Shown here in pieces: positions 6,997 through 55,130 of a stretch of 64,000 bases of DNA (its first letter is position 1; each line of letters starts with the position of its first letter). Below the pieces are notes generated by a model, which was given only the letters and a program-made list of their open reading frames with translations, searched no databases and was not told where the DNA came from. The DNA lies in contig CALXJJ010000005.1 of NCBI GenBank assembly GCA_944388605.1, positions 5,966-69,965 of the forward strand. Direction: 5' to 3'. Position numbers and translations under genes: made by a program. The stretch comes from an uncultured Clostridia bacterium (GTDB taxonomy: Bacteria > Bacillota > Clostridia > TANB77 > CAG-508).

Positions 6997-7530
6997 ATGA
7001 GATATGCAAAAGAAAAAGTTGAGAAACTATGTAGTTTCTATGTAAGTGACTGGCACTTAGCAACAATGCTTTTACCGTATATAAATAAGAAAGTAGATGA
7101 AAAAGTAGAAGTTATAGCAATCTTAGAAACCAATTTAAAAGAAAATATAAAAGTACTTTTGAACAAATTAAATTTGAAAAATATGGAAAAAATAGATAAA
7201 ATTGATTTTGATAAAACAAATGCATATAAATATGAAAATATCGTAAAAAAAATAGGAGATAAATTAAATAATGAAATTGTAATTATAGTTAATGGAAATA
7301 AAGAATATATAGAAGCTACAAATAATAATATAAATAAAGTAATTGAAAAAAATATAAATAAAATTAATAAAAAAATAAAGATAGTAAATTGTTATGAAGT
7401 TACAGAATTTAATACAAATATTAAAGAAATTTTAGATGAGCATGATAAAATATTAAATACATCAGGAGAAAAGGAAAAAGGAGAGGTCTTTGAAGGTTAT
7501 AGTGATGTCAAAATAAATGAAGCAAAATAA
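6997..7530 (+). CDS. Hypothetical protein (177 aa, soluble, K/N/E-rich)
   Basis: Intact ORF with an AGGAGG RBS. No family recognised. Confidence 0.5.
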   Translation: MRYAKEKVEKLCSFYVSDWHLATMLLPYINKKVDEKVEVIAILETNLKENIKVLLNKLNLKNMEKIDKIDFDKTNAYKYENIVKKIGDKLNNEIVIIVNGNKEYIEATNNNINKVIEKNINKINKKIKIVNCYEVTEFNTNIKEILDEHDKILNTSGEKEKGEVFEGYSDVKINEAK

Positions 7531-12768: not shown

Positions 12769-13527
12769 ATGATATTAAGAATGGATGTAAAAGAAAAAAA
12801 GCATGTTATAAAAAGTTATTTAGGTCTTTCAGCTTTAGTAATAATATTTATATTGGTTGCTATATCTATAATGAAATATGAAGTAGAAGGAGAAAAAAAT
12901 ATGCCTTTTTTACTTTCAAAAATAATGGTAATAAGTACAGCAGAGGGAGTTAGTAAAGAAGAAGTACAAGAAGGGCAAAAATGGAATTTAGATGTAATGC
13001 AAGATAACGACGTATATATAACAATAAATAAAAATGAAGAATATAAAAAAGAAGATATGATAGAAAAAGTAATACTAGAAAATATAAAAATAACAAAAGT
13101 ACCTAAAAAAGGTACAGTCAAAATTTATATGCCAAATAGTTCGGCTGGTAAAGTATATGAATTTAAACAAGAATACGAAGTTATAGATAGATTAGAGTAT
13201 AATGGGGCAATGCAAAGTAATCCAAAGACATTGGAAATAGGAAACCAAGGAGGAATGATACAAATAAGATTTGCTAATACATATTTAGGGGAATATGTTT
13301 CATCTAATGATGATGTTATAAAACATGATGGAACATTAATTTCAAAAACAGATGCAAATTTGGAAGATTTACAATTCAGTGTGAATTTTGATTTGATTAT
13401 AAAAACAAAAAATGAAAGTTATAAAGCAAATATAAATTTAGACTTCCCACAAGGAGATATTATTAATGAAGGAACTGGAACAATGACAAAAGATGATGTA
13501 TCAAATATAATTTTTAAAAGAATTTAG
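12769..13527 (+). CDS. Hypothetical membrane-anchored protein (N-terminal TM helix, 252 aa)
   Basis: Intact ORF with a single N-terminal hydrophobic helix. No family recognised. Confidence 0.5.
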   Translation: MILRMDVKEKKHVIKSYLGLSALVIIFILVAISIMKYEVEGEKNMPFLLSKIMVISTAEGVSKEEVQEGQKWNLDVMQDNDVYITINKNEEYKKEDMIEKVILENIKITKVPKKGTVKIYMPNSSAGKVYEFKQEYEVIDRLEYNGAMQSNPKTLEIGNQGGMIQIRFANTYLGEYVSSNDDVIKHDGTLISKTDANLEDLQFSVNFDLIIKTKNESYKANINLDFPQGDIINEGTGTMTKDDVSNIIFKRI

Positions 13528-23751: not shown

Positions 23752-24276
23752 ATGGAATATATACAAGGAAAACATTTTAGTATAACAGACCCACAAGGAG
23801 TAAATACAATAATATATAGAATTAACAAAACAGAAAAAGAATATTTAAAAGACTTTCCGAAATATACAGTAGAAAGATTAGAATATGCAGAGGAACTAAA
23901 AGGTGATTTGAAAAAGAAAACCTTTTTTATAGATGAGCCCTCTGATACAGGAGAAGACCTAGTATTTTTATCTTTTGGAAAAGAAAAAGTAGTTGTAAAT
24001 ATGGGTGAATTGGAAAATAATAAGATAAAAATATCTAAAAAACCAATACCCGTAAAGTTTAATACATTATATTCAGAAAAAGAAACAGAATATAAAGAAT
24101 TTAAATACACTCCTAATTTAAAAAGACCAATAACAATAATAGACCCAGAAACAACAGAAGAAATAAAGCCAGTTCTTTATTTAGATGAAAATACAAATGA
24201 GGTGAAGGGAAAGTGTAAATTAAAACCATATAAATCATATTTTTCATTTGAGATTAAAGACAATAGTGATCAATAA
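23752..24276 (+). CDS. Hypothetical protein (174 aa, soluble, K/E-rich)
   Basis: GGGGTGG RBS. First gene of a 3-gene operon. No family recognised. Confidence 0.55.
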   Translation: MEYIQGKHFSITDPQGVNTIIYRINKTEKEYLKDFPKYTVERLEYAEELKGDLKKKTFFIDEPSDTGEDLVFLSFGKEKVVVNMGELENNKIKISKKPIPVKFNTLYSEKETEYKEFKYTPNLKRPITIIDPETTEEIKPVLYLDENTNEVKGKCKLKPYKSYFSFEIKDNSDQ

Positions 24277-27994: not shown

Positions 27995-29917
27995 ATGAAA
28001 ATTAAAAAAATAAAAATAAATTCGTTCGGAAAATTAAAAAATAAAGAAATTAATTTTAATAAAAAAATAAATATTATTTATGGTGAAAATGAAAAAGGAA
28101 AATCTACTTTATTAAAATACATTATTTCTATTTTTTATGGATTATCAAAAAATAAAAGAGGAAAAGAAATATCTGAATATGAAAAATATATTCCTTGGGA
28201 CGGAGGAGATTTTTCAGGAAAAATAGAATATGAATTAAATAGTGGTGAACAATATGAAATATATAGAAGTTTCCATAATAGGGAAATTAGAGTATATAAT
28301 GACATGAAAGAAGAAATAACAAATCAGTATCAAATTGACAAAAATAGTGGAGTAAAGTTTTTTGAAGAGCAAACAAAAATAGATGAAGAAATGTTTAAAA
28401 ATGCTTTAGTAAGTTTGCAAGGTCATGTAACAATAGATTCACAAGTACAAAATAATTTAATGCAAAAGATTGCAAATCTTTCGGATAGTGGACAAGATGA
28501 TATTAGCTTTAATAAAGTAATAGACAATTTAAATAAAATGCAAAATGAAGAAATAGGAACATTAAGAACAAAAGATAGGCCATATAATAAAGTATTAGAG
28601 AAATTAGAAAAAGCACAAATTGACTTAAAGACAATAGAAATAAATGAAAATAGATTAGAAGAAATAAGAATAGAAAAAGAGAAAATTTATGAAGAAAATA
28701 ATGGCGAAACAGTTGTCAATAATATAATTATGGAAACCAAAAGGATAGAAGAAAAAAAATCAGAAGTAGAGAAAAAAAATAATTTTATAAAAAAAATAAT
28801 AGATGAGAATAAAATAAAAATAAAAAATCTAGAAAATGAAAGAGAAAAAATAATAAAAGATTATGAAAAAAATAAAAATAAAAAAGAAATAAAAAAAATA
28901 AATAAAATTAATTATTTAATTATTTTTTTTATTTTAATAATAATAAATATTGTTCAATTAATTTTTTTAAAAAATAAAATAATAAATTATTTATTATTAT
29001 TTTTAATTCCAATTTTTTTATTAATATATTTTATTAAAATAAAAAATAATAAAAAACAAACAAAAATAAATAAAAAAATAGAAAATGAACAAAAAAATAA
29101 ATTAGAAAATAATATAAATATTTTAAATAGTAAAATGGAATTATTAAAACAAAATAATAAGGAAAATAAAATTAAAATAGAAAAAAGCAGAGAGGAAATT
29201 GAAAAAATAATAGAAATAGAAAGAGAAAATATAATAAAAAGATATATTAACAAATTAAGTTTAAATAAAATAAATGAAATATTAGATATTGAAAATTTGG
29301 AAAATAAATTAATTAAAAATAATAATAAAATAAATAACAATAAAATTAAAATTAAAGAATTAGAAATAGAAGAAAAAAATATAAAAAATAAAATAGATGA
29401 GAAAATTAATTTAATAGAAAAAATAGAAAAATTAAAAAATATAAAATGTGAATTAGAAGAAAAAAATAAAATATATGAAGAAACAAAAGAATTAATGAAA
29501 AGTGCATATGAAAAGATGAAAAAAAATATAACTCCTAAATTTGTAGATAATTTATCACAAGCAATAAATAAAATATCAAATGGAAAATATAAAAATATTT
29601 CGATAAGTACAGAAAAAGGAATAATTGTTGAAAATGAAAATGGAAAATATATTCCAGTCAGTTTATTAAGTATGGGTACAATAGATGAATTATATTTATC
29701 ATTAAGAATTTCTATGATAGAAGAATCATCAAATGAAAGTATGCCAATTATATTAGATGAAGCATTTGCATATTTTGATGATGAAAGATTAGAAAAAACG
29801 CTAGAATATTTAATAAATTATTCAGATAAACATCAAATAATTTTATTTACATGTACAGATAGAGAAAAGAAAATCTTAGATAAAAAAAATACAGAGTACG
29901 AAATGATAAAAATATAA
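27995..29917 (+). CDS. SbcC/Rad50-like AAA ATPase (YhaN-like) with a central predicted TM hairpin
   Basis: N-terminal Walker A (GENEKGKST). C-terminal signature and D-loop region (LSMGTIDELYLSLRI...ILDEAFAYFD). K/N-rich coiled coil. Two hydrophobic helices mid-protein. Confidence 0.65.
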   Translation: MKIKKIKINSFGKLKNKEINFNKKINIIYGENEKGKSTLLKYIISIFYGLSKNKRGKEISEYEKYIPWDGGDFSGKIEYELNSGEQYEIYRSFHNREIRVYNDMKEEITNQYQIDKNSGVKFFEEQTKIDEEMFKNALVSLQGHVTIDSQVQNNLMQKIANLSDSGQDDISFNKVIDNLNKMQNEEIGTLRTKDRPYNKVLEKLEKAQIDLKTIEINENRLEEIRIEKEKIYEENNGETVVNNIIMETKRIEEKKSEVEKKNNFIKKIIDENKIKIKNLENEREKIIKDYEKNKNKKEIKKINKINYLIIFFILIIINIVQLIFLKNKIINYLLLFLIPIFLLIYFIKIKNNKKQTKINKKIENEQKNKLENNINILNSKMELLKQNNKENKIKIEKSREEIEKIIEIERENIIKRYINKLSLNKINEILDIENLENKLIKNNNKINNNKIKIKELEIEEKNIKNKIDEKINLIEKIEKLKNIKCELEEKNKIYEETKELMKSAYEKMKKNITPKFVDNLSQAINKISNGKYKNISISTEKGIIVENENGKYIPVSLLSMGTIDELYLSLRISMIEESSNESMPIILDEAFAYFDDERLEKTLEYLINYSDKHQIILFTCTDREKKILDKKNTEYEMIKI

Positions 29918-29990
29918 TAATTGAAAAAAAACAATATTTGTGATAAAATAGATAAGAAATTTTGTAAAATATAAATTAAGGAGAATGATT

Positions 29991-31055
29991 ATGTTTCAAA
30001 AATTAGAAGGTGTAGAAAAACGTTATGAAGAAATAACAAAAAAAATAAGTGATCCAGAAATTATTGCAAAGCATAATGAGTGGAAAGATTTAATGAAAGA
30101 GCATAGTGATTTAGAACCAATTGTATTAAAATATAGAGAATATAAAAATGTAAAAAAAGACTATGAAGATGCAAAAGAAATGATGGAAGATAAAGAGATG
30201 AAAGAGTTAGCTGAAGAAACTATGTTAGAAGCAAAAGAAAAATTACCTAAAATAGAAGAAGAATTGAAAATACTTTTAATTCCTAAAGACCCAGATGATG
30301 AAAAAAACGTGATTTGTGAAATAAGAGCAGGAACAGGAGGAGAAGAAGCAGCTTTATTTGCAGGAACATTGTTTAGAATGTATTCAATGTATGCAGAAAG
30401 AAAACATTGGAAATTGGAAGTGTTAAATGAAAACCCTACGGAACTGGGCGGTTACAAAGAAATATCATTTATGATAACAGGAAAAGGTGCATATAGTAGA
30501 CTCAAATTTGAAAGTGGTGCACATAGGGTTCAAAGAGTTCCAGAAACAGAAAGTAGTGGAAGAATACATACTTCTGCTGCAACAGTAGCTGTTCTTCCAG
30601 AAGCAGAAGATGTTCAAATAGATATAAACCCAGCAGATATAAAAATGGAAGTATTTAGAGCATCAGGAGCAGGTGGACAACATATTAATAAAACATCATC
30701 AGCAGTAAGACTTATACATATTCCTACAGGAATGGTAGCAGAATGTCAAACAGAAAGATCACAAGTACAAAATAGAGAATATGCTATGAAACTATTACGT
30801 TCAAGATTATATGAAGAAGAAAAATCTAAAAAAGATGCAGAATATGCTAATAAAAGGAAAACACAAGTAGGATCAGGAGATAGAAGTGAAAAAATAAGAA
30901 CATATAATTATCCACAAGGAAGAATTACAGATCATAGAATAGGAATGAGTATTTATCAAATGGAAGATTTTCTAAATGGGAACTTAGATGAAATGATAGA
31001 TAATTTAATAGCAGCAGATACTGCAGAAAAATTAAAAGGTAATGAAGAGGATTGA
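29991..31055 (+). CDS. prfA: Peptide chain release factor 1
   Basis: GGQ motif ([11 protein letters not shown]) and PxT-like recognition region. Start taken at MFQKLEG. Confidence 0.9.
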
Positions 31056-43070: not shown

Positions 43071-43349
43071 TTAACTAAGTAATAATAAAATTAGTGCAAT
43101 GAATAAATACTCATCTTTAACTCCTTCTTCATATAAAAATATCAAAATTAATAATAACAATAAATCATCTAAATAAAGATTGATTCCTAAAATAGTGAAA
43201 AGAGGTTTTTCATTATTTTGATTTTTTTCATTTGCAGTATTACTAGAAGGAGGAAGTTTGGCTTTATGGTTAAGATTATGGTGATTAATATTATAAGGTC
43301 TGTAATAATTATGAGAAAAATATGGATTAAAAGGATTATATGGTGGCAT
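43071..43349 (-). CDS. Hypothetical Pro/Tyr/Asn-rich protein with a hydrophobic C-terminus (92 aa)
   Basis: Its start codon overlaps the stop of the upstream ORF (TAATG), which suggests translational coupling. Confidence 0.4.
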   Translation of the reverse strand: MPPYNPFNPYFSHNYYRPYNINHHNLNHKAKLPPSSNTANEKNQNNEKPLFTILGINLYLDDLLLLLILIFLYEEGVKDEYLFIALILLLLS

Positions 43350-43762
43350 TATCCATTGCCACCTGAAGAGTTATTTTTCATACCAAATATATTTCCTAAT
43401 CCAGAATCATTTAAATTTCCCATAATAGAAGCCATTTTTAAAAAATTAATGTATTGATCTACTTTTTCTTTTCTGCTTTCTTTTAAATATGGTTTTAAAG
43501 AAAGTAATAAATTAGATCTAGGGTCATTAGAAGTATTTTTCATTGCGTCAGCAATTGATTTAAATTTCATAATCATATTAATATCTATATCACCAAAAGG
43601 ATTATCTACGGAGGATTGGTCTTGAGAAGAATTTGAATTACTATTTTCTTTATTAGAATTAAGATTAATATTATTCATTATATCTTTAATATTATCTGGA
43701 ATATTGCCAGAATTAATCATATTACTTATATTTTTAATAACATCAGACATATCCTCGCTCAT
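43349..43762 (-). CDS. Hypothetical Asn/Ser-rich protein (137 aa)
   Basis: Intact ORF in an operon-like arrangement with its neighbours. No family recognised. Confidence 0.45.
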   Translation of the reverse strand: MSEDMSDVIKNISNMINSGNIPDNIKDIMNNINLNSNKENSNSNSSQDQSSVDNPFGDIDINMIMKFKSIADAMKNTSNDPRSNLLLSLKPYLKESRKEKVDQYINFLKMASIMGNLNDSGLGNIFGMKNNSSGGNG

Positions 43763-44236: not shown

Positions 44237-44265
44237 TTGAAAAATCAAATAAAACGTGGTAAAAT
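44237..44265 (+). promoter_or_regulatory. Putative sigma-A promoter (TTGAAA, 17 nt spacer, TAAAAT) upstream of adhesin gene 1
   Basis: Hexamers with 17-nt spacing about 55 nt upstream of the ATG. Confidence 0.35.
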
Positions 44266-44319: not shown

Positions 44320-47300
44320 ATGAAAAAAATAAATAAAATTTTATCAGTACTACTAGTTTTTACAATGATGTGGACTTACTTATCTGTGATTTTGTCATTC
44401 ACAAATGAAGTATATGCATCATCTAACGAATTAGAGTCACAAGATAAAGATACAGGAAATAGTAATGTGGAATTTGATAGTTATTTTGATGGAGGAGTAC
44501 ACAGCATAAAATCTGATATTAATTCACAAGATACAAAAATTCATATGAATATTAAAGTGAAGAATGCAGGCTACCTTAAAGATGCAAAAATAAAGGTTAG
44601 CAATGCTAATTTTGTGTTGTCTGGTGATATGGTAGAAGGTGTGCAAAGTATAGATACAAACTCTGGAGAAATAGCATTAGAACAAATAAATAATGGAGAT
44701 GACAAAACATATAGTTTTACAATTTATCCAAGAAAAGACGATTTGATAAATGTAGATAATTTCGTAAAAGAAAATGAAATACTTTTTGAAGGTACATATA
44801 TAAATAAAGATGGAGAAGAGGAAAAAGTACAATCTACTATAAAGGATAAGATAGAATGGAATGGTAATGCAAAAATAAATGTAGAAGCAAATGTAATTAA
44901 AAATATACCATTTAGCATAAAGAGCGGAAAAGGAGAAATTTTACAAGTAGAAGTAAAAACAAATGTAGTAGACAATCTATTACCAATCAAAACAAATGAA
45001 TTAAATATTGTGGTTCCTATGATAAATAATATATTGCCAGATGATGTAAATGTTATGGCAAAAGATACAATAGCAACAAATGGAAAAGATGGAGTAGACT
45101 TTACAGAAGAAAATTATTCATATGACAAAGAAAAAGGAATCTTAAATATAAAAGTAGAAAATAATCCAGAAGAAGAAAAAATAGATTGGAGAAAAAATGA
45201 ACAGGATGAATTTATAATAACATATGTATATAATAATGAAGAAGTTTATAATTATATGACAGCAAATGAAACATTAATAAATTCAGAAATAACGAGTAAT
45301 ATGTCATTATATAATAATGAAGAAACAAAAATAGAAACAAAAATTAATTTAAATACATCAGTAAAAGAGCAAATAGGAGACATTGTTACATTAACACCAA
45401 GTATAGAAACACAAACATTATCAAAAGCATATATATATGCAAATTATGATAAATCAGAAAATAAAGAAGAAACTAATTATACTCAAAAATATAGAGTAGA
45501 AGTAGCAGTATCAAATATTATAGATGAACTTGAAATAAATGAACAATATGATGCATTTATTATAAATGGAGAGCAAGGATTAACAACAGTTGCAGGTACA
45601 AATTATGCATACAACAAAAAAGTGTATATATCAGAAAAAATATTTAATAAAATTTTAGGAGAAAATGGATATATAAATTTAATAGATATAAATGGAAATA
45701 CAATAGGAACAATAAACAAAGATACACAAAGAGATGAAAATGGAAATATGTATATTGATATTTCTGGATTAGATAATAATATGGTAAAAATGCAGATAAG
45801 TAAACCAATAACAGAAGGAAATATAGATATTTTCATAGATAAAGCAATAAAAGGTGAAATAGCATACAGTAAAGAGCAATTAAAAGATACGACAAGTTTA
45901 AGAATGTTTTCAGATATAAAAGTTATAAATAATGACTCTGTAATAGCAGAAAGACAAGCAGAAGCAGAAAAAGAATTTATAGAACCAAAAACAACAGCAG
46001 AGATAGAAATAAATAATACAAGTTTATCAAGCATAGTAACAAATGAAGATGTAGAAATTAAAGCAATATTAAGAACAGATAGTGTAGAAAACGCATTGTT
46101 TAAAAATCCAACAATTAGAATAGACTTACCAGAATATATAGAAAATATAAATGTAAAAAATGTTTATATTGCATATGATGATGAACTAAAAATAACAGAA
46201 GCTAACCTATTTGAAGAAAATGGGCATAAAGTAATAGAAATAAGATTAGAGGGAACACAAACTAAGTATAACATTGGTTCAGTAACTAAAGGAACAAATA
46301 TAGTTATTGTTGGAGATATAACAGTTAAGAAATTAACACCAACAGTAGATACAGAAATAAAAATGACATATACAAACGAAAATAGTACAGAATTAGAAAA
46401 TATTATGGCAAAAACAAGAGCAAGAACATTAAGTTTAGTTACTCAAGAAGTTTCTACAAAAATACAAATAGTTGCTCCAACAGGATTAGTTACAGTAAAT
46501 GAAATACAAGGATTTTCTGCAAATGGAACTAAAATTACATCAATAAGCGGAGAAGAACAAACAGGAAAATTAGAATATAGAGGAGAACAAAGAACAGCCA
46601 AAGTTACAGGAACAATAATAAACAATTATGAAAATGATTTAAATAATGTTAGGATTTTAGGAAGATTACCTGTAACAGGAGTAATGAATAATACATTTGA
46701 CGCAAAAATAAATTCTGAGATTAATTTAACAGGAGCAAATGCAACAATATATTATAGTACAAAAGCAGATGCAACAGATGATATTGGAAATACTGGAAAT
46801 GGATGGACAACAACATTTACTGCAGAAGCTAAATCATATTTAATAGTAATTGACGGAAATGTTACAAGAAGTGCACAACTAAGCTTTACATATGATATTT
46901 TAATACCTGCAGATTTAGATTATTATCAAACAATTGCAGAAAAATACAGTGTAATGTTTAATAATTTGATGCCAGACAATATACAAGCTCAAACAGAAAA
47001 TTCACCGCTTGCTACATTAACAACAGGAGAAGGAGTTAAACTAGAAGCAAGTTTAGCAGTAGAAGGAAATGGAAAAGAAGTATATAGAACAAGAGAAAAT
47101 ATAAAATATATAGCAACAATTAAGAATACAGGAAATTTGGATGCAGAAAATGCAAAAATAACATTTGATATTCCAGAAGGAATGTTATATATGGAATATG
47201 ATGATGGTAATACAATATTTGAACATCCAGAAACACCATTTAATGGAATAGATGTAGGATTAATAAAAGCAGGAGAAACAAAGCAAGTAACATTTTATTT

Positions 47301-49368
47301 ACAAGTAAATGTAGCTTCAGATGAAGAAACAACAGATGTAAAATTAAGTGCAAATATTACAGCAGATAAGTTAGACAAACCGATTTCTACAAATGAAGTA
47401 ACAATTAAGACTATAAGAGGACAATTTGAGATAATGAACAGAACAAATACATTAGATGGAGAAGAATTTGCAGAAGGAGCAAGAATAATATATGAAGTAA
47501 CAGTAAGAAATTACAATGTAACAACACAAAATGAACAGCCTGTAAAACAAAGTACAACAAATACAACAGTAACAATACCATTACCTAAAAATAGTCAAAT
47601 CTTAGATAAATATGTTGCAGAATCTGGTGGCGGACAAAAATTAGATATAGAAATAAATGAATCAAATAATACATTAACTGTAAATTTAGGTACATTAGAA
47701 TATTTGGATAGTAGATATATTTATGTAGAATATTTAATCGGAGCAGATGCAGTAGGAGATTTTAATACACAAGTAAGTGTTAGAGCAGATGGAATAGATG
47801 AGCACTATTCAAATAATAAAGTAATGCATATTAAAGCAATAGATTTAGAATTAGTTCAAAATGATATTGATAAAGAATATGTAAAAGAAAGAGAAGTATT
47901 TAAATATAAATTTACATTAACAAATTTAACAGGAACAGCAATAAAAGATGTTGTAATAGAAGATATAATACCAAAAGAAGTAATATTTGATGAACATTTA
48001 GTTGCTTATCAAGTTGATGAAAATGGAAATACGATAGTAAATCCAGATACTAAGGAACCAATTCCAGAAAAAATATTATACATATATACTGAAGATGGAA
48101 CAGAATATAATAGAGTATATACATATAACTCTAATAATGGAAATGCAGTAATAAACTTAGATACATTAGATGCTAATACAACAGTATATATAGAACTTGC
48201 TGTAAGAGCAGGAACAGTTGAAGATGATACAGAAGTAACAAATTATGCTAAAATATCTGCAAATGGAGTACAAGAGAAAGAATCAAATAAAATAACACAT
48301 TATATAGAATATACTCCAGAAAATCATGGTGAAACACCAGAAAAAGAGGGTAGATATAAAATAACAGGAACAGCATGGTTAGATGCAGATAAAAATGGAC
48401 AAAGAGACGATGGAGAAGAATTATTATCAAATATAAGAGTAATGTTAATGAATGTAGATACAAACCAAATTGCAGTAGATGCAGATAATGGTGAACAAAA
48501 AATAGTAACAACAAATTCAAATGGTAAATATGAATTCTCAAATCTATTACCAGGAAGATATATAGTTATATTTGTATATGATGCAAGTAAATATTCAATA
48601 ACAGATTACAAAAAAGAAAATGTATCATCAACAGTAAATTCAGATGCAATATTAATGAAAATGGATATAGATGGAAAATTAACTAATGTTGGTGCAACAG
48701 ACACAATAGTTGTAACAAATGAAAATATTAGAAGTATGGACATTGGATTATATGAACAAAAGAAATTTGACTTAAAATTAGAAAAATACATTACAAAAAT
48801 AACAGTTCAGAATAATACAGGAACAAAAACATATGATTATGGAGAAACACAATTAGCAAAAAGAGATTTAATTGCAAGCCAAATGAATAATACAAACTTA
48901 GTAGTAGAATATAAAATTAAAGTTATAAATGAAGGACAACTAGAAGGATATGCTAAAAAGATTATAGACTATTTACCAAAAGAATTAAAATTCAGTACAG
49001 AACTAAATCCGGATTGGTATTTAGGACAAGATGGCAATATATATAATGCAAGTTTAGCTGATACAAAGATAAATCCAGGAGAAACAAAAGAAATAACATT
49101 AATATTAACAAAAGCGACATCAAAGAGTGATAATTTAGGATTAATAACAAATAAAGCAGAATTATATGAAGTTTCAAATGATTATGGAGTAGAAGATATA
49201 GACTCAACACCAAATAACAATGTACAAAATGAAGATGATACTTCAATAGCAAATTTACTATTATCACCAGGAACTGGTAGAACAGTATTATTTGTAGTAT
49301 TAACAACAGTAATAATAATAATAATTGGAGTAGGAGTTTACTTCATAAAGAAAAAGGTAATAAAATAA
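44320..49368 (+). CDS. Giant cell-wall-anchored surface protein (1682 aa): DUF11/CARDB-like repeats and an SdrD-B/CnaB-like domain
   Basis: AGGAGG RBS and signal peptide. SdrD-B-like segment (TGTAWLDADKNGQRDDGEELL...TNSNGKYEFSNLLPGRYIV). C-terminal SPGTG motif, hydrophobic helix and KKKVIK tail. Confidence 0.8.
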   Translation: MKKINKILSVLLVFTMMWTYLSVILSFTNEVYASSNELESQDKDTGNSNVEFDSYFDGGVHSIKSDINSQDTKIHMNIKVKNAGYLKDAKIKVSNANFVLSGDMVEGVQSIDTNSGEIALEQINNGDDKTYSFTIYPRKDDLINVDNFVKENEILFEGTYINKDGEEEKVQSTIKDKIEWNGNAKINVEANVIKNIPFSIKSGKGEILQVEVKTNVVDNLLPIKTNELNIVVPMINNILPDDVNVMAKDTIATNGKDGVDFTEENYSYDKEKGILNIKVENNPEEEKIDWRKNEQDEFIITYVYNNEEVYNYMTANETLINSEITSNMSLYNNEETKIETKINLNTSVKEQIGDIVTLTPSIETQTLSKAYIYANYDKSENKEETNYTQKYRVEVAVSNIIDELEINEQYDAFIINGEQGLTTVAGTNYAYNKKVYISEKIFNKILGENGYINLIDINGNTIGTINKDTQRDENGNMYIDISGLDNNMVKMQISKPITEGNIDIFIDKAIKGEIAYSKEQLKDTTSLRMFSDIKVINNDSVIAERQAEAEKEFIEPKTTAEIEINNTSLSSIVTNEDVEIKAILRTDSVENALFKNPTIRIDLPEYIENINVKNVYIAYDDELKITEANLFEENGHKVIEIRLEGTQTKYNIGSVTKGTNIVIVGDITVKKLTPTVDTEIKMTYTNENSTELENIMAKTRARTLSLVTQEVSTKIQIVAPTGLVTVNEIQGFSANGTKITSISGEEQTGKLEYRGEQRTAKVTGTIINNYENDLNNVRILGRLPVTGVMNNTFDAKINSEINLTGANATIYYSTKADATDDIGNTGNGWTTTFTAEAKSYLIVIDGNVTRSAQLSFTYDILIPADLDYYQTIAEKYSVMFNNLMPDNIQAQTENSPLATLTTGEGVKLEASLAVEGNGKEVYRTRENIKYIATIKNTGNLDAENAKITFDIPEGMLYMEYDDGNTIFEHPETPFNGIDVGLIKAGETKQVTFYLQVNVASDEETTDVKLSANITADKLDKPISTNEVTIKTIRGQFEIMNRTNTLDGEEFAEGARIIYEVTVRNYNVTTQNEQPVKQSTTNTTVTIPLPKNSQILDKYVAESGGGQKLDIEINESNNTLTVNLGTLEYLDSRYIYVEYLIGADAVGDFNTQVSVRADGIDEHYSNNKVMHIKAIDLELVQNDIDKEYVKEREVFKYKFTLTNLTGTAIKDVVIEDIIPKEVIFDEHLVAYQVDENGNTIVNPDTKEPIPEKILYIYTEDGTEYNRVYTYNSNNGNAVINLDTLDANTTVYIELAVRAGTVEDDTEVTNYAKISANGVQEKESNKITHYIEYTPENHGETPEKEGRYKITGTAWLDADKNGQRDDGEELLSNIRVMLMNVDTNQIAVDADNGEQKIVTTNSNGKYEFSNLLPGRYIVIFVYDASKYSITDYKKENVSSTVNSDAILMKMDIDGKLTNVGATDTIVVTNENIRSMDIGLYEQKKFDLKLEKYITKITVQNNTGTKTYDYGETQLAKRDLIASQMNNTNLVVEYKIKVINEGQLEGYAKKIIDYLPKELKFSTELNPDWYLGQDGNIYNASLADTKINPGETKEITLILTKATSKSDNLGLITNKAELYEVSNDYGVEDIDSTPNNNVQNEDDTSIANLLLSPGTGRTVLFVVLTTVIIIIIGVGVYFIKKKVIK

Positions 49369-49388
49369 GGAAAGGAGGATAAAATTAG

Positions 49389-52300
49389 ATGAAAAGGAAA
49401 AGTTATATATTAACATTTCTATTTGCAATAGTGTCAGTAATAATATTTGCATTTCTTGTATCCATTATAAATATAGAACAAATTAAATCTGTATTTGGAG
49501 ATAAGCTAGGATATGTTAGTGGAACAGAAGAAATACTTAGTGCTGAAGAAAAGGTTTCAGAAGACCTTGGAGTACATATTACACATAATGAATTCTGCAA
49601 TGGCTCAGATATAAGAATAGTAAAAGAGATTTCAGTTGGAGATGATATGTGGAGACCATTAACAGAAAATGGAGAAGTAATGTACTGTATTAAACCAGGA
49701 GCTCCATTATCTACATCTGCAAGAGGAGGAAGAGCACATTTAAGCAAAGAAGAAATATATGCTTTTGATGGACAAGAATTACATGAAGATTGTGGATGTG
49801 CACCAGATGTTGAAGGTTATTTAGATATAAGTGATCCATATGCAATATGTGAAGGCAGACATTACTGGGCAGATAGTTCATATGGTGGAGGAAAATTATA
49901 TGATGTAGCATTTATTGTATCATTCCAAGAAGATCCTCATATTGGAAACTATGGTGATTGGGCAGATGCAATACAACAAGCCATTTGGATGTCACCAATA
50001 TGTTTAACAGGAGATCCAGGAAGAGGTCATGATAGAGCAGCAGGACTTGCAATAAGTAAAATGGCAGAAAACTATAAGGATTTCTTCACAAAAATAATGG
50101 AACAAAAATCTGACGGACATTCTATGGTAAAAGCAGATACAACAGATTATAGTAAAGTACAAATAGATGTGGAGTATACAGATGATGATAATAAAGAACC
50201 AGATACATATTACAGAATGGGACCATTTAAAATAGATTATGTAAGTGGTGTATATGAAAGTAATGGTTCACAATACTCTTTCGGTGGAATTTCAAATATG
50301 TATTTATATTATGATGATGGAAAAACAAACCCAGAACACAGAATAGAAATTACACACTTCTTATATCCAGATGGAGATGTTACAGCAAGTGGTGAAGGAA
50401 GATATGTAAAACCAAGATATTTCAATGTACGTTGGCCAGCAGGAGGAGCAGATCCAGGATATCCAGAAACAGGAGAAGTAAATAAAAACCTTGTAGACTT
50501 TTATCATGGAGCATATGGTAAAGTTGCAGGATACCCAGAACCAAATCAAGAATTCTATATTGAATTCAGAGCTTCAGATTTAGAAGGAATAGAAGCTAAA
50601 TCATTAAAACTACATGTTGACTTTAAATTCTTAACATGTGAAATGGAAATATGTATAAGAAATACAGTTGAAAGGTATCAAGTACAACAAGATCATGTTG
50701 ATACAACACATTATCATCCTACATCAGATGGAGGAAGAAGAAAATGCCATGATTGTGATAAAACATCTTGGATAGATAAAATACCACAACAGGCTTGTGT
50801 ATATATAGCATATGCAGATAGACATTTAGATAAAGATGAATTAGACATACCATTTGAAGACATACCAATAGAAGATTGGCCTACACTTACAATGAAAATT
50901 GGTGGATTCGTATTTGAAGATTATAAAACAGGAAAAGAGCAAGATTCAAATAACAACAAAGGTGATGAAGATATTGTATTAAAAAATATTGAAGTTACAT
51001 TATGGGAAGTTGATGAAAGTGGAAATAAAAAATTAGCAGAATTAGCAACATATGAGCAAGAATTCCCTGGATCAACAGCAGAACCAGAAGATGATTATAC
51101 AAGAAGAATAAATCCAACATTAACAGATGAAAAAGGATATTATGAATTTAGAGGTGTTGATAAATCTAAAAAATATGTAGTAGAGTTCTCATATAATGGA
51201 CAAGATTATATGCCAACAAACTATATAACAGATTTAAATGGAACACAATACACAAACGTAAAATCAATGGTAGACAATGATGCAGAAGATGATTATTACA
51301 ATAGCGTAAAAGATACAGAACCATGGAAATCAACATCAAAAGCTACAGAAATAACATCAGAAAGAGAAGCTTATGACAAAAAATTTGCTTCAATTGGATC
51401 ATATCCAAAGAACTATGCAACAAGTAATAGTTTAGGATATACAGATGTAATGTTAGAAGATGGAGGAATATATAATAAAACATTTACAAAAAATGATTTA
51501 TTAGGATTAGAATTAGATACTAGTGGACAATATGTACAAAGATATACTTATTATGGAGCTGAATCATTAATAGATTATATTAAGATAGAAGGAGAAAATT
51601 CAAATTCAAAACAAGTTACATTTGTAGAAGGCGCAATAAGTAAGAGAATTAGGGAATTTATAGATGCAGAAAGAAGATATCCAACAGATGAAGAAATGAT
51701 TAGTGTTATATATGCTTCTATAATAGGTAGTACAGATGATGAAAATATTAAAAACAAACTTCAATTTATAGAAGATTGCAAAATAAGTGCTTGGACAAAA
51801 AATCAACAAGCAAGTGAAAATATACTAGACTATGATTTATATCCTGTATATGATAGATTCAAAACATATGTAAAGAGTGGTAATAAATACCCAATAAATA
51901 GTTATGCAAATGGAAGTTATGATGGAACAGTATCAGAATATGCAAGTGTTGAATTACCAAAAGCACAACAAACAGGAGGAACTGAAACAGAATTATATAA
52001 AAATGTTTACCCAGGACAATTACAAATTAACTTAGGATTGTGGGAAAGACAAGAAGCTGATATGAGTATCAAAAAAGATGCATATAAAGTAGCATTAAAA
52101 ATAAATGGAAAAATGCAAGTATATGATTATGATGATAGAAATGTTGGAAGTGACGAAAATGTTGCAAACCAATATGATGCATTAGGAAATAGAATAGAAA
52201 ATACTACTTGGGATATATCAGTAAGAGTTTCTGATGGATATTATGGAACAATAAGTAGAAAATATTATGAATTACCATTATATCCAGATGATTATAATTA

Positions 52301-55130: not shown

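Follow-up and report, generated by a model that had tools for sequence, protein, structure and literature searches.

A thioester-domain-like module and a non-canonical LPPYG C terminus in a giant surface protein of uncultured gut Clostridia

Thioester domains (TEDs) are, to our knowledge, the only bacterial device for covalent target binding, and all TEDs that we know to be described fall into two classes detectable by Pfam; they are also under development as protein-ligation tools. A 64,000-nucleotide window of contig CALXJJ010000005.1 from an uncultured Clostridia bacterium, a low-GC (~27%) Clostridia-type chromosome segment, encodes a giant surface protein of 1,913 amino acids that raises the question of whether such a domain can persist where sequence models no longer recognize it, and how the protein that carries it is held at the cell envelope. 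An earlier note, made from the DNA letters alone, had taken this protein for a TIE-type adhesin with an internal Cys-Gln thioester, two stalk domains and an atypical sorting signal. Our analysis indicates that the note had hit upon something real and named the right kind of protein, but erred on the residue that forms the bond, on the spacing and on the sorting class of the upstream neighbor. The reading that we favor, with moderate confidence, is a thioester adhesin of Class II-like plan, divergent and expanded, whose LPP[F/Y]G sorting signal is conserved but non-canonical.

The open reading frame (ORF) itself is real: it starts with ATG about 10 nucleotides downstream of an AAGGAGG sequence, and it contains the motifs VMYCIKPGA (residues 97-105, with Cys100), DAIQQAIW (residues 193-200, with Gln196 and Trp200) and VLPPYGE (residues 1876-1882), as well as the C-terminal hydrophobic helix and basic tail, all as first reported. 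The overall layout of stalk plus sorting signal likewise supports a TIE-type adhesin. A protein identical to the target occurs on at least five contigs with the same upstream neighbor, the three of them shown coming from three independent metagenome samples, and the target is therefore not an assembly artefact. The precomputed Pfam annotation of this identical protein is empty.

Fold and motifs of the N-terminal module

An AlphaFold2 model of residues 55-520, based on an alignment of 23 sequences (pLDDT 79.9, pTM 0.80), runs from strands A-C through three helices, a β-sandwich and four strands of 17-19 residues to a last hairpin, and has the β-barrel and three-helix bundle of the TED fold. In Class II TEDs a β-sandwich lies between helix α3 and strand P, and the P-Q hairpin loops back into the head as a slipknot (PMC6194298). 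The model shows the same order of elements, namely a head, an insertion after helix α3 and a returning P-Q hairpin, with an insertion about three times larger. When the full module was compared with solved structures by Foldseek, the only matches at E ≤ 1e-3 were chains C and A of 6fwy, a Class II TED (E 7e-5, probability 0.95, ~430 collinear columns), with TM-scores that were low because of the enlarged insertion. Modeled without the returning hairpin, the head lobe dropped to a pLDDT of 65.5, consistent with the hairpin completing the head. Judged from these models, a TED-like fold of the N terminus is highly likely.

The likeness extends to both structural classes. The head lobe aligns with Class I TEDs (SfbI 5a0l, CpTIE 5a0g, PnTIE 5a0n, Cpa 2xi9 and FNE 5dcq) over 102-111 residues at 3.4-3.9 Å, and the three-motif logic is shared (PMC4450167), whereas the large insertion of the target contrasts with the linker of ~10 residues that joins helix α3 to strand P in Class I (PMC6194298). 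Class II TEDs (BaTIE 6fwv, EfmTIE86-TED 6fwy, SaTIE-TED 6fx6 and TIEpLS20) share more: the head-lobe fold with a YCΦζ cysteine at a strand end, a Gln/Trp helper motif on helix α2, a β-rich insertion after helix α3, a candidate bond glutamine on a returning hairpin ~20 residues before the domain end, and, beyond the module, a stalk of CnaB/SdrD_B type and a sorting-type C-terminal signal. They differ in that the insertion of the target comprises ~230 residues with its four long strands, compared with a sandwich of ~75 residues, and in that the target protein is 2-3 times longer and ends in LPP[F/Y]G rather than LPXTG.

The reactive cysteine of TEDs lies within a [YFL]CΦζ motif on a strand (PMC6194298, PMC4450167), and the model places Y99-C100-I-K of the target at such a strand end. 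Conservation was counted over 33 family sequences with a mutual identity of ~25-45%, 24-25 of which extend to the C-terminal part of the module. Cys100 is kept in 33/33, and Tyr99 and Gly104 in 32/33 each. IQQAIW, which corresponds to the helper motif TQxxΦW of TEDs, sits on the second of the three model helices, with Gln196 and Trp200 kept in 32/33 and Ala198 in 31/33 sequences. Retention of Cys100, Gln196 and Trp200 at such low identity suggests that the motifs are more than chance.

Which glutamine would close the bond is a separate question. The earlier note had paired the cysteine with QQAIW over a distance of about 130 residues; the measured distance is 96, and the pairing itself finds no support. 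In TEDs, TQxxΦW is a separate helical motif beside the bond, common but not universal, whose Gln and Trp are dispensable for bond formation (PMC4450167, PMC6194298). A Cys100-Gln196 thioester could draw on the near invariance of both residues and on the fact that the motif glutamine adjoins the cysteine in real TEDs (PMC6194298). However, the helix-α2 glutamine has never been the bond partner in characterized TEDs, where its mutation leaves the bond intact (PMC4450167, PMC6194298), and a separate, invariant Gln468 occupies the topologically expected place, so that we consider this pairing highly improbable. A proximity check between Cys100 and Gln196 would mislead, because the motif glutamine is expected beside the cysteine anyway.

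Gln468 is kept in 24/24 sequences reaching that region and is followed by ζ-x-Φ-Φ (N/D/A-x-V/L-Y/F); the residue before it is not hydrophobic. In the model it is residue 414, which falls in the turn connecting strand 396-412 to strand 416-434 (pLDDT ≥ 90), 20 residues before the module end; Gln256 of TIEpLS20 (..NTSSYQRLM..) is placed in the same way with respect to its P-Q hairpin turn. We therefore regard Gln468 as the likely partner of Cys100, as far as the model allows. Gln258 (VQIDV), which has a Class-I-like spacing from Cys100, was also considered and rejected because the closest homologues carry a lysine there. A residue-level mapping of Gln468 onto TIEpLS20 by hhalign failed: whether TIEpLS20 was used alone or as a four-sequence profile, only the Cys motif was aligned.

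Taken together, these elements suggest the following picture. The module of residues ~68-490 would be a highly divergent TED on the Class II plan, in whose head lobe strand C ends with Cys100 and leads into the three-helix bundle with the IQQAIW helper on helix α2. Past helix α3 the chain would leave the head for the β-rich insertion, and the long hairpin would bring Gln468 back. If SfbI, Cpa, BaTIE and TIEpLS20 are a guide, Cys100 and Gln468 would then form the internal thioester spontaneously with loss of NH3. Attack on it by a nucleophile of the target molecule, typically a lysine amine, would link the adhesin to its target by an isopeptide bond at Gln468. On the strength of that analogy, we lean toward formation of the Cys100-Gln468 bond.

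The module is unusual for a TED in its wealth of conserved Cys and His residues, which form two clusters in the target family and none in known TEDs. In the head lobe (C135-x-C137...C154...H158), C135 is kept in 26/33, C154 in 29/33 and H158 in 28/33 sequences, position 137 is Cys or His in 20/33, and the model is confident (pLDDT 87-93). Around the loop that, as deduced from the model secondary structure, joins two long strands, H441-x-H443...C453-x-x-C456 has C456 in 25/25 sequences covering it and Cys or His at position 453 in 23/25, in a region that is expanded and Cys/His-rich in homologues. By their sequence pattern both clusters resemble metal sites and may bind metal. It is conceivable that the TED-derived fold has no thioester at all, its Cys and His residues serving as metal sites or disulfides and its ligand being bound non-covalently. 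The number of these residues (CxC..C..H and HxH..CxxC), the failure of sequence models on the module and a TlpA-like thiol-disulfide oxidoreductase gene beside the operon in four relatives would all fit that idea. Nevertheless, Cys100 matches the [YFL]CΦζ context exactly, no other cysteine is kept in 33/33, Gln468 is invariant without obvious other role, and the most divergent members P0017, P0018 and P0023, fragments that end before Gln468, have lost C135, C154 and H158 and keep Cys100 together with the helper Gln and Trp. We thus hold a fold without thioester to be unlikely.

Several observations weigh against a thioester adhesin. Neither Pfam TED (PF08341) and TED_2 (PF20610) nor NCBIfam TQXA match the target at E ≤ 0.1, and PDB sequences gave nothing with the N terminus in single-sequence or family-profile searches, so that no sequence homology to Class II TEDs is detectable. 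In an hhalign comparison with the TIEpLS20 family, the best local match fell precisely on the Cys motif (Cys100 with Cys68; E 0.006), a hint in favor of a TED, but nothing else was aligned and the probability of 6.5% is not significant; the TIEpLS20 profile comprised four sequences, since a homologue search with that protein gave only three. The Cys100-Gln468 spacing of 368 residues is unprecedented; Class I TEDs have ~150 residues between the two and Class II TEDs 171-204 (PMC6194298). The threonine of TQxxΦW is K, I or V in the target family. Ten further cysteines are present in the module, and since one of them, Cys422, also lies near a hairpin tip, other chemistry such as a disulfide or a metal site is possible. 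Finally, no obvious AxA cleavage site was seen by eye in the N-terminal hydrophobic segment.

Failure of a domain search to place the N terminus in the TED family was what the earlier note had named as grounds for abandoning its claim, and formally the Pfam and NCBIfam searches did fail. This is weak evidence against a TED, because TIEpLS20, an experimentally supported Class II TED with a functionally required Cys68 (PMC8092201), served as positive control and clears Pfam by less than 2 bits (TED_2, 28.8 versus 27; TED, 23.6 versus 22). A faint Pfam TED match (E 0.015) in 1/23 family members is a further hint in favor. The TED fold and motif logic are thus present, while membership in the TED sequence family is not demonstrable.

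The family is rare. Word-indexed homologue searches with the N terminus or with a head-lobe alignment returned no relatives, and the family was found only by exhaustive HMMER, in which residues 40-520 retrieved only 25 relatives from 1.84 billion representative proteins, the best being 44% identical. Relatives are also encoded at nine genomic loci, all in metagenome-assembled genomes (MAGs) of uncultured gut Clostridia (Clostridium sp. CAG:273, Hadza and Brazilian gut bins). In three members (P0004, P0007 and P0009) the module starts at residues ~530, 255 and 600, respectively, behind extra N-terminal domains, and is therefore not obligatorily N-terminal. With this family, the TED fold reaches into regions of sequence space that present models do not detect. 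If the bond forms, the definition of the TED family would be widened, and a starting point would be gained for learning how gut Clostridia that are abundant but uncultured fasten onto their substrate.

C-terminal sorting-like signals

The C terminus had been described as lacking a canonical LPxTG, with VLPPYGE as the nearest motif. The motif is present and has no threonine, yet it is anything but vague: LPPYG is the target's form of a conserved LPP[F/Y/T]G signal found in 19 family proteins, reading LPPFG in 17, LPPYG in the target and LPPTG in P0007. In all 19 it is part of a tripartite signal in which about four residues, a hydrophobic helix and a tail of KKKVLKK type follow the pentapeptide. 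LPXTG signals share this architecture: their pentapeptide closes with Gly and is set off by ~4 residues from a hydrophobic helix ~20 residues long, after which comes a Lys-rich tail. The LPPTG of one member is a further likeness; the difference lies at P1, which is Phe (17/19) or, in the target, Tyr, instead of Thr or a small residue. Within the window and the related-locus sequence examined, a hydrophobic tail preceded by such a pentapeptide is found only in the target protein (partner B) and in the giant protein encoded directly upstream (partner A).

Partner A ends, as reported, in SPGTG, followed by a transmembrane helix and KKKVIK. The suggestion that SPGTG belongs to the (S/P)PxTG class used by clostridial enzymes is not borne out. 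Sortase SrtB of C. difficile requires (S/P)PxTG and cuts between T and G (PMC4155245), whereas the nine orthologues of partner A carry SVVTG (five, and again in L001), SVATG, AVATG and GTVTG, outside that pattern; SPGTG occurs only in the window, and only the x-x-T-G part is conserved. Because the orthologues carry these other pentapeptides, we regard the likeness of SPGTG to the C. difficile motif as coincidental. Compared with LPXTG, partner A has T-G but S-V-V in place of L-P-x. Aligned at their last Gly, the two partners divide LPxTG between them, with the L-P half retained in partner B and the T-G half in partner A.

A sortase-type reading faces several contrary results. None of the curated sorting-signal models, TIGR01167 and PF00746 among them, reached its cutoff, although sub-threshold matches to LPXTG-anchor models (14.1 versus 15.9 bits for TIGR01167 in P0001 and 20.4 bits for EF0750_LPXTG in the target) point toward such a signal. 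In the literature searched, no substrate with Phe or Tyr at the sortase P1 position is described, and no paper contains the strings LPPFG, LPPYG or SVVTG. In agreement with the earlier note, no sortase was found in the window: all ORFs of 120 residues or more lack the TLxTC motif, and Pfam gave no sortase match among the 32 ORFs scanned, which included every non-nested ORF of 150-300 residues; a TLxTC motif scan of nine related loci (~20 kb each) was equally negative.

These results would suit a plain membrane anchor, in which the conserved LPP[F/Y]G has a structural part next to the membrane or is cut by a protease other than a sortase, and the protein has no link to peptidoglycan: P1 lacks Thr, no sorting-signal HMM reaches its cutoff, a sortase appears neither in the window nor in the related loci, and partner A orthologues (SVVTG) also lack the L-P half. 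Against it, 19/19 proteins have precisely the register and spacing of LPXTG signals along with the basic tail, one of them carries the canonical LPPTG, and the pentapeptide is far more strictly conserved than its flanks; a plain anchor is plausible all the same, if doubtful. The occurrence of LPPTG in one member and a pentapeptide so strictly conserved favor a sortase-like process, and from the sequence LPPYG is most likely a sortase-type signal whose P1 Thr has turned into Phe or Tyr. Processing of the sortase type at LPPYG is possible, at slightly less than even chances in our view. In the favored reading of a thioester adhesin, LPPYG, the hydrophobic helix and the basic tail would keep the protein attached to the envelope. 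From the strict conservation of LPPFG and SVVTG, a sortase or other enzyme of undescribed specificity is predicted, which would be of interest for cell-surface biology and for sortase-based protein engineering.

Stalk modules, partner gene and operon

Between module and C terminus, two SdrD-B/CnaB-like stalk domains had been claimed. Neither reaches Pfam significance: SdrD_B (PF17210) above its gathering threshold is absent from the target, and the sole Pfam match is CarboxypepD_reg at residues 571-605 (24.6 bits versus a cutoff of 32.3). On the other hand, stalk domain 1 resembles the SdrD_B domain of partner A in pairwise comparison (E 2e-5), as does stalk domain 2 (E 2e-7 and 3e-4), and SdrD_B is significant in the family members P0023 and P0025 at the place equivalent to stalk domain 1. 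DUF11, which had also been suggested as a search target, had no Pfam match in the target protein. The pair as a whole thus recalls stalks of the SdrD B-repeat/CnaB type with DUF11, since SdrD_B and DUF11 are significant in partner A and two similar modules occur in the target, with the difference that the target copies stay below Pfam cutoffs and carry insertions of ~200-270 residues. The rest of the target protein, with these two modules and their large insertions, would form the stalk.

The tandem arrangement of two giant proteins is real and conserved across related loci. Partner A and the target appear to form one co-transcribed operon, as suggested by the gap of 20 nucleotides between them and by a 16-bp hairpin 10 nucleotides past the target's stop codon (Table 1). 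The promoter-like site upstream of partner A is a consensus match only, and the number of such sites in the region does not exceed shuffled expectation. In what would be an operon for a surface fibre of an uncultured low-GC gut Clostridium, the target would be the distal, target-binding partner.

Table 1. Coordinates of the target gene, its parts and associated features (window positions unless a related locus is named)
Feature	Position	Strand	Remarks
Partner A	44320..49368	+	1682-aa giant surface protein with zero Cys; DUF11 x2 and SdrD_B (Pfam); probably co-transcribed
Promoter-like site, extended -10 (TG)	44237..44265	+	Upstream of partner A; consensus match
SPGTG of partner A	49264..49278	+	Local variant of the orthologues' S-V-V/A-T-G motif
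Shine-Dalgarno AAGGAGG	49372..49378	+	In the gap between partner A and target
Target gene (partner B)	49389..55130	+	1913-aa giant surface protein; ORF, ATG start
MKRK and ~23-residue hydrophobic stretch	49389..49472	+	N-terminal signal peptide or signal anchor, read from sequence
Whole TED-like module, aa ~68-490	49590..50858	+	Head lobe, β-rich insertion, returning hairpin
TED head lobe, aa 68-246	49590..50126	+	Strands A-C, then three helices
Cys100 codon	49686..49688	+	YCIK = [YFL]CΦζ; predicted thioester Cys, strand end in model (E44-46)
C135-x-C137...C154...H158	49791..49862	+	Head lobe; possible Zn site or disulfide
IQQAIW, aa 195-200	49971..49988	+	Helper motif TQxxΦW, helix α2 (H139-146 of model); not the bond-forming Gln
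β-rich insertion, aa ~247-440	50127..50708	+	After helix α3; sandwich part carrying the conserved motifs LGPFK.DY and FGGISxMY, very long strands behind it; model and alignment
H441-x-H443...C453-x-x-C456	50709..50756	+	Possible Zn knuckle
Gln468 codon	50790..50792	+	Predicted thioester Gln; tip of last long β-hairpin
Stalk domain 1, aa ~503-630	50895..51278	+	SdrD_B/CnaB-like; below Pfam threshold; CarboxypepD_reg 24.6 bits
Stalk domain 2, aa ~1228-1345	53070..53423	+	SdrD_B/CnaB-like; below Pfam threshold
LPPYG, aa 1877-1881	55017..55031	+	Family-specific LPP[F/Y/T]G sorting-like pentapeptide
Spacer, hydrophobic helix, basic tail (RKWVLGKKK)	55032..55127	+	Read from sequence
16-bp palindromic hairpin	55140..55175	.	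Likely terminator of the two-gene operon
TlpA/ResA-like thioredoxin genes	L003:3902-4549, L005:3722-4372, L007:4016-4633, L009:3519-4235		Related loci

Genomic setting

In the window, mreB-mreC-mreD, PBP2 and minC lie upstream of the pair and spoIIE downstream. The order PBP2-minC-(pair)-spoIIE recurs in at least six related MAGs (loci L002, L003, L005, L007, L008 and L009), and the two genes are also adjacent in L001, L004 and L006. Given this recurring minC/spoIIE slot, the pair has the look of a stable part of the lineage core rather than of a mobile accessory adhesin. One could go further and see in the pair a lineage-core envelope or fibre component that is no host adhesin at all, with the thioester capturing partner A or a cell-wall amine in self-assembly. 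The constant slot beside cell-shape and sporulation genes and the invariable co-occurrence of partners A and B would agree with this, and TEDs can target bacterial surfaces, as TIEpLS20 does (PMC8092201). Still, synteny alone is no indicator of function, and characterized TEDs bind external ligands (PMC4450167), which makes self-assembly decidedly unlikely to us. It is tempting to speculate, although we think it rather unlikely, that the family represents a third structural TED class, with a Cys-Gln spacing of ~370, an enlarged insertion in the form of a long β-ribbon and two zinc-type sites, and that the LPPFG/SVVTG signal pair is served by a dedicated transpeptidase that assembles both giants into a lineage-core fibre of uncultured gut Clostridia. 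No third TED class is described in the literature searched.

Some features of the loci deserve mention in their own right. In four related MAGs, a gene for a membrane-anchored TlpA/ResA-like thioredoxin of ~210 residues with WCPPC lies directly upstream of the pair; tblastn found none in the window. Such a thioredoxin could bear on the wealth of cysteines conserved in the TED-like module. The partner-B gene of one related locus (L007:9974-15926) is split into ORFs of 569 and 1,422 residues, the smaller of which shares its C terminus with P0013; the split may reflect a frameshift or pseudogene, or else faulty assembly. The window also holds, between minC and partner A, an Asn/Ser-rich ORF of 137 residues (43349-43762, minus strand) with no Pfam match, whose C terminus (..LKPYLKESRKEKVDQYI..) is matched by ORFs in the corresponding position of L005 and L009.

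Four further window ORFs of 174-412 residues (6997-7530, 12769-13527, 23752-24276 and 60029-61267) have no Pfam family at E ≤ 0.001. At 28001-30000 the GC content falls to 17% with strong GC skew, and a 640-residue ORF (27995-29917) spans the region. Downstream of spoIIE, a protein of 508 residues with four WG_beta_rep repeats is encoded at 58369-59895, and similar C termini occur at the same position in L002 and L003. The spoIIE gene itself (55749-58227) appears to fall into two overlapping frames, a 113-residue ORF (55749-56090) and a 725-residue ORF (56050-58227), in the latter of which the Pfam SpoIIE_N match begins at profile position 110. The independent assembly L011 has the same split (110 + 717 residues), suggesting a real frameshift or an unusual start in spoIIE rather than a sequencing error.

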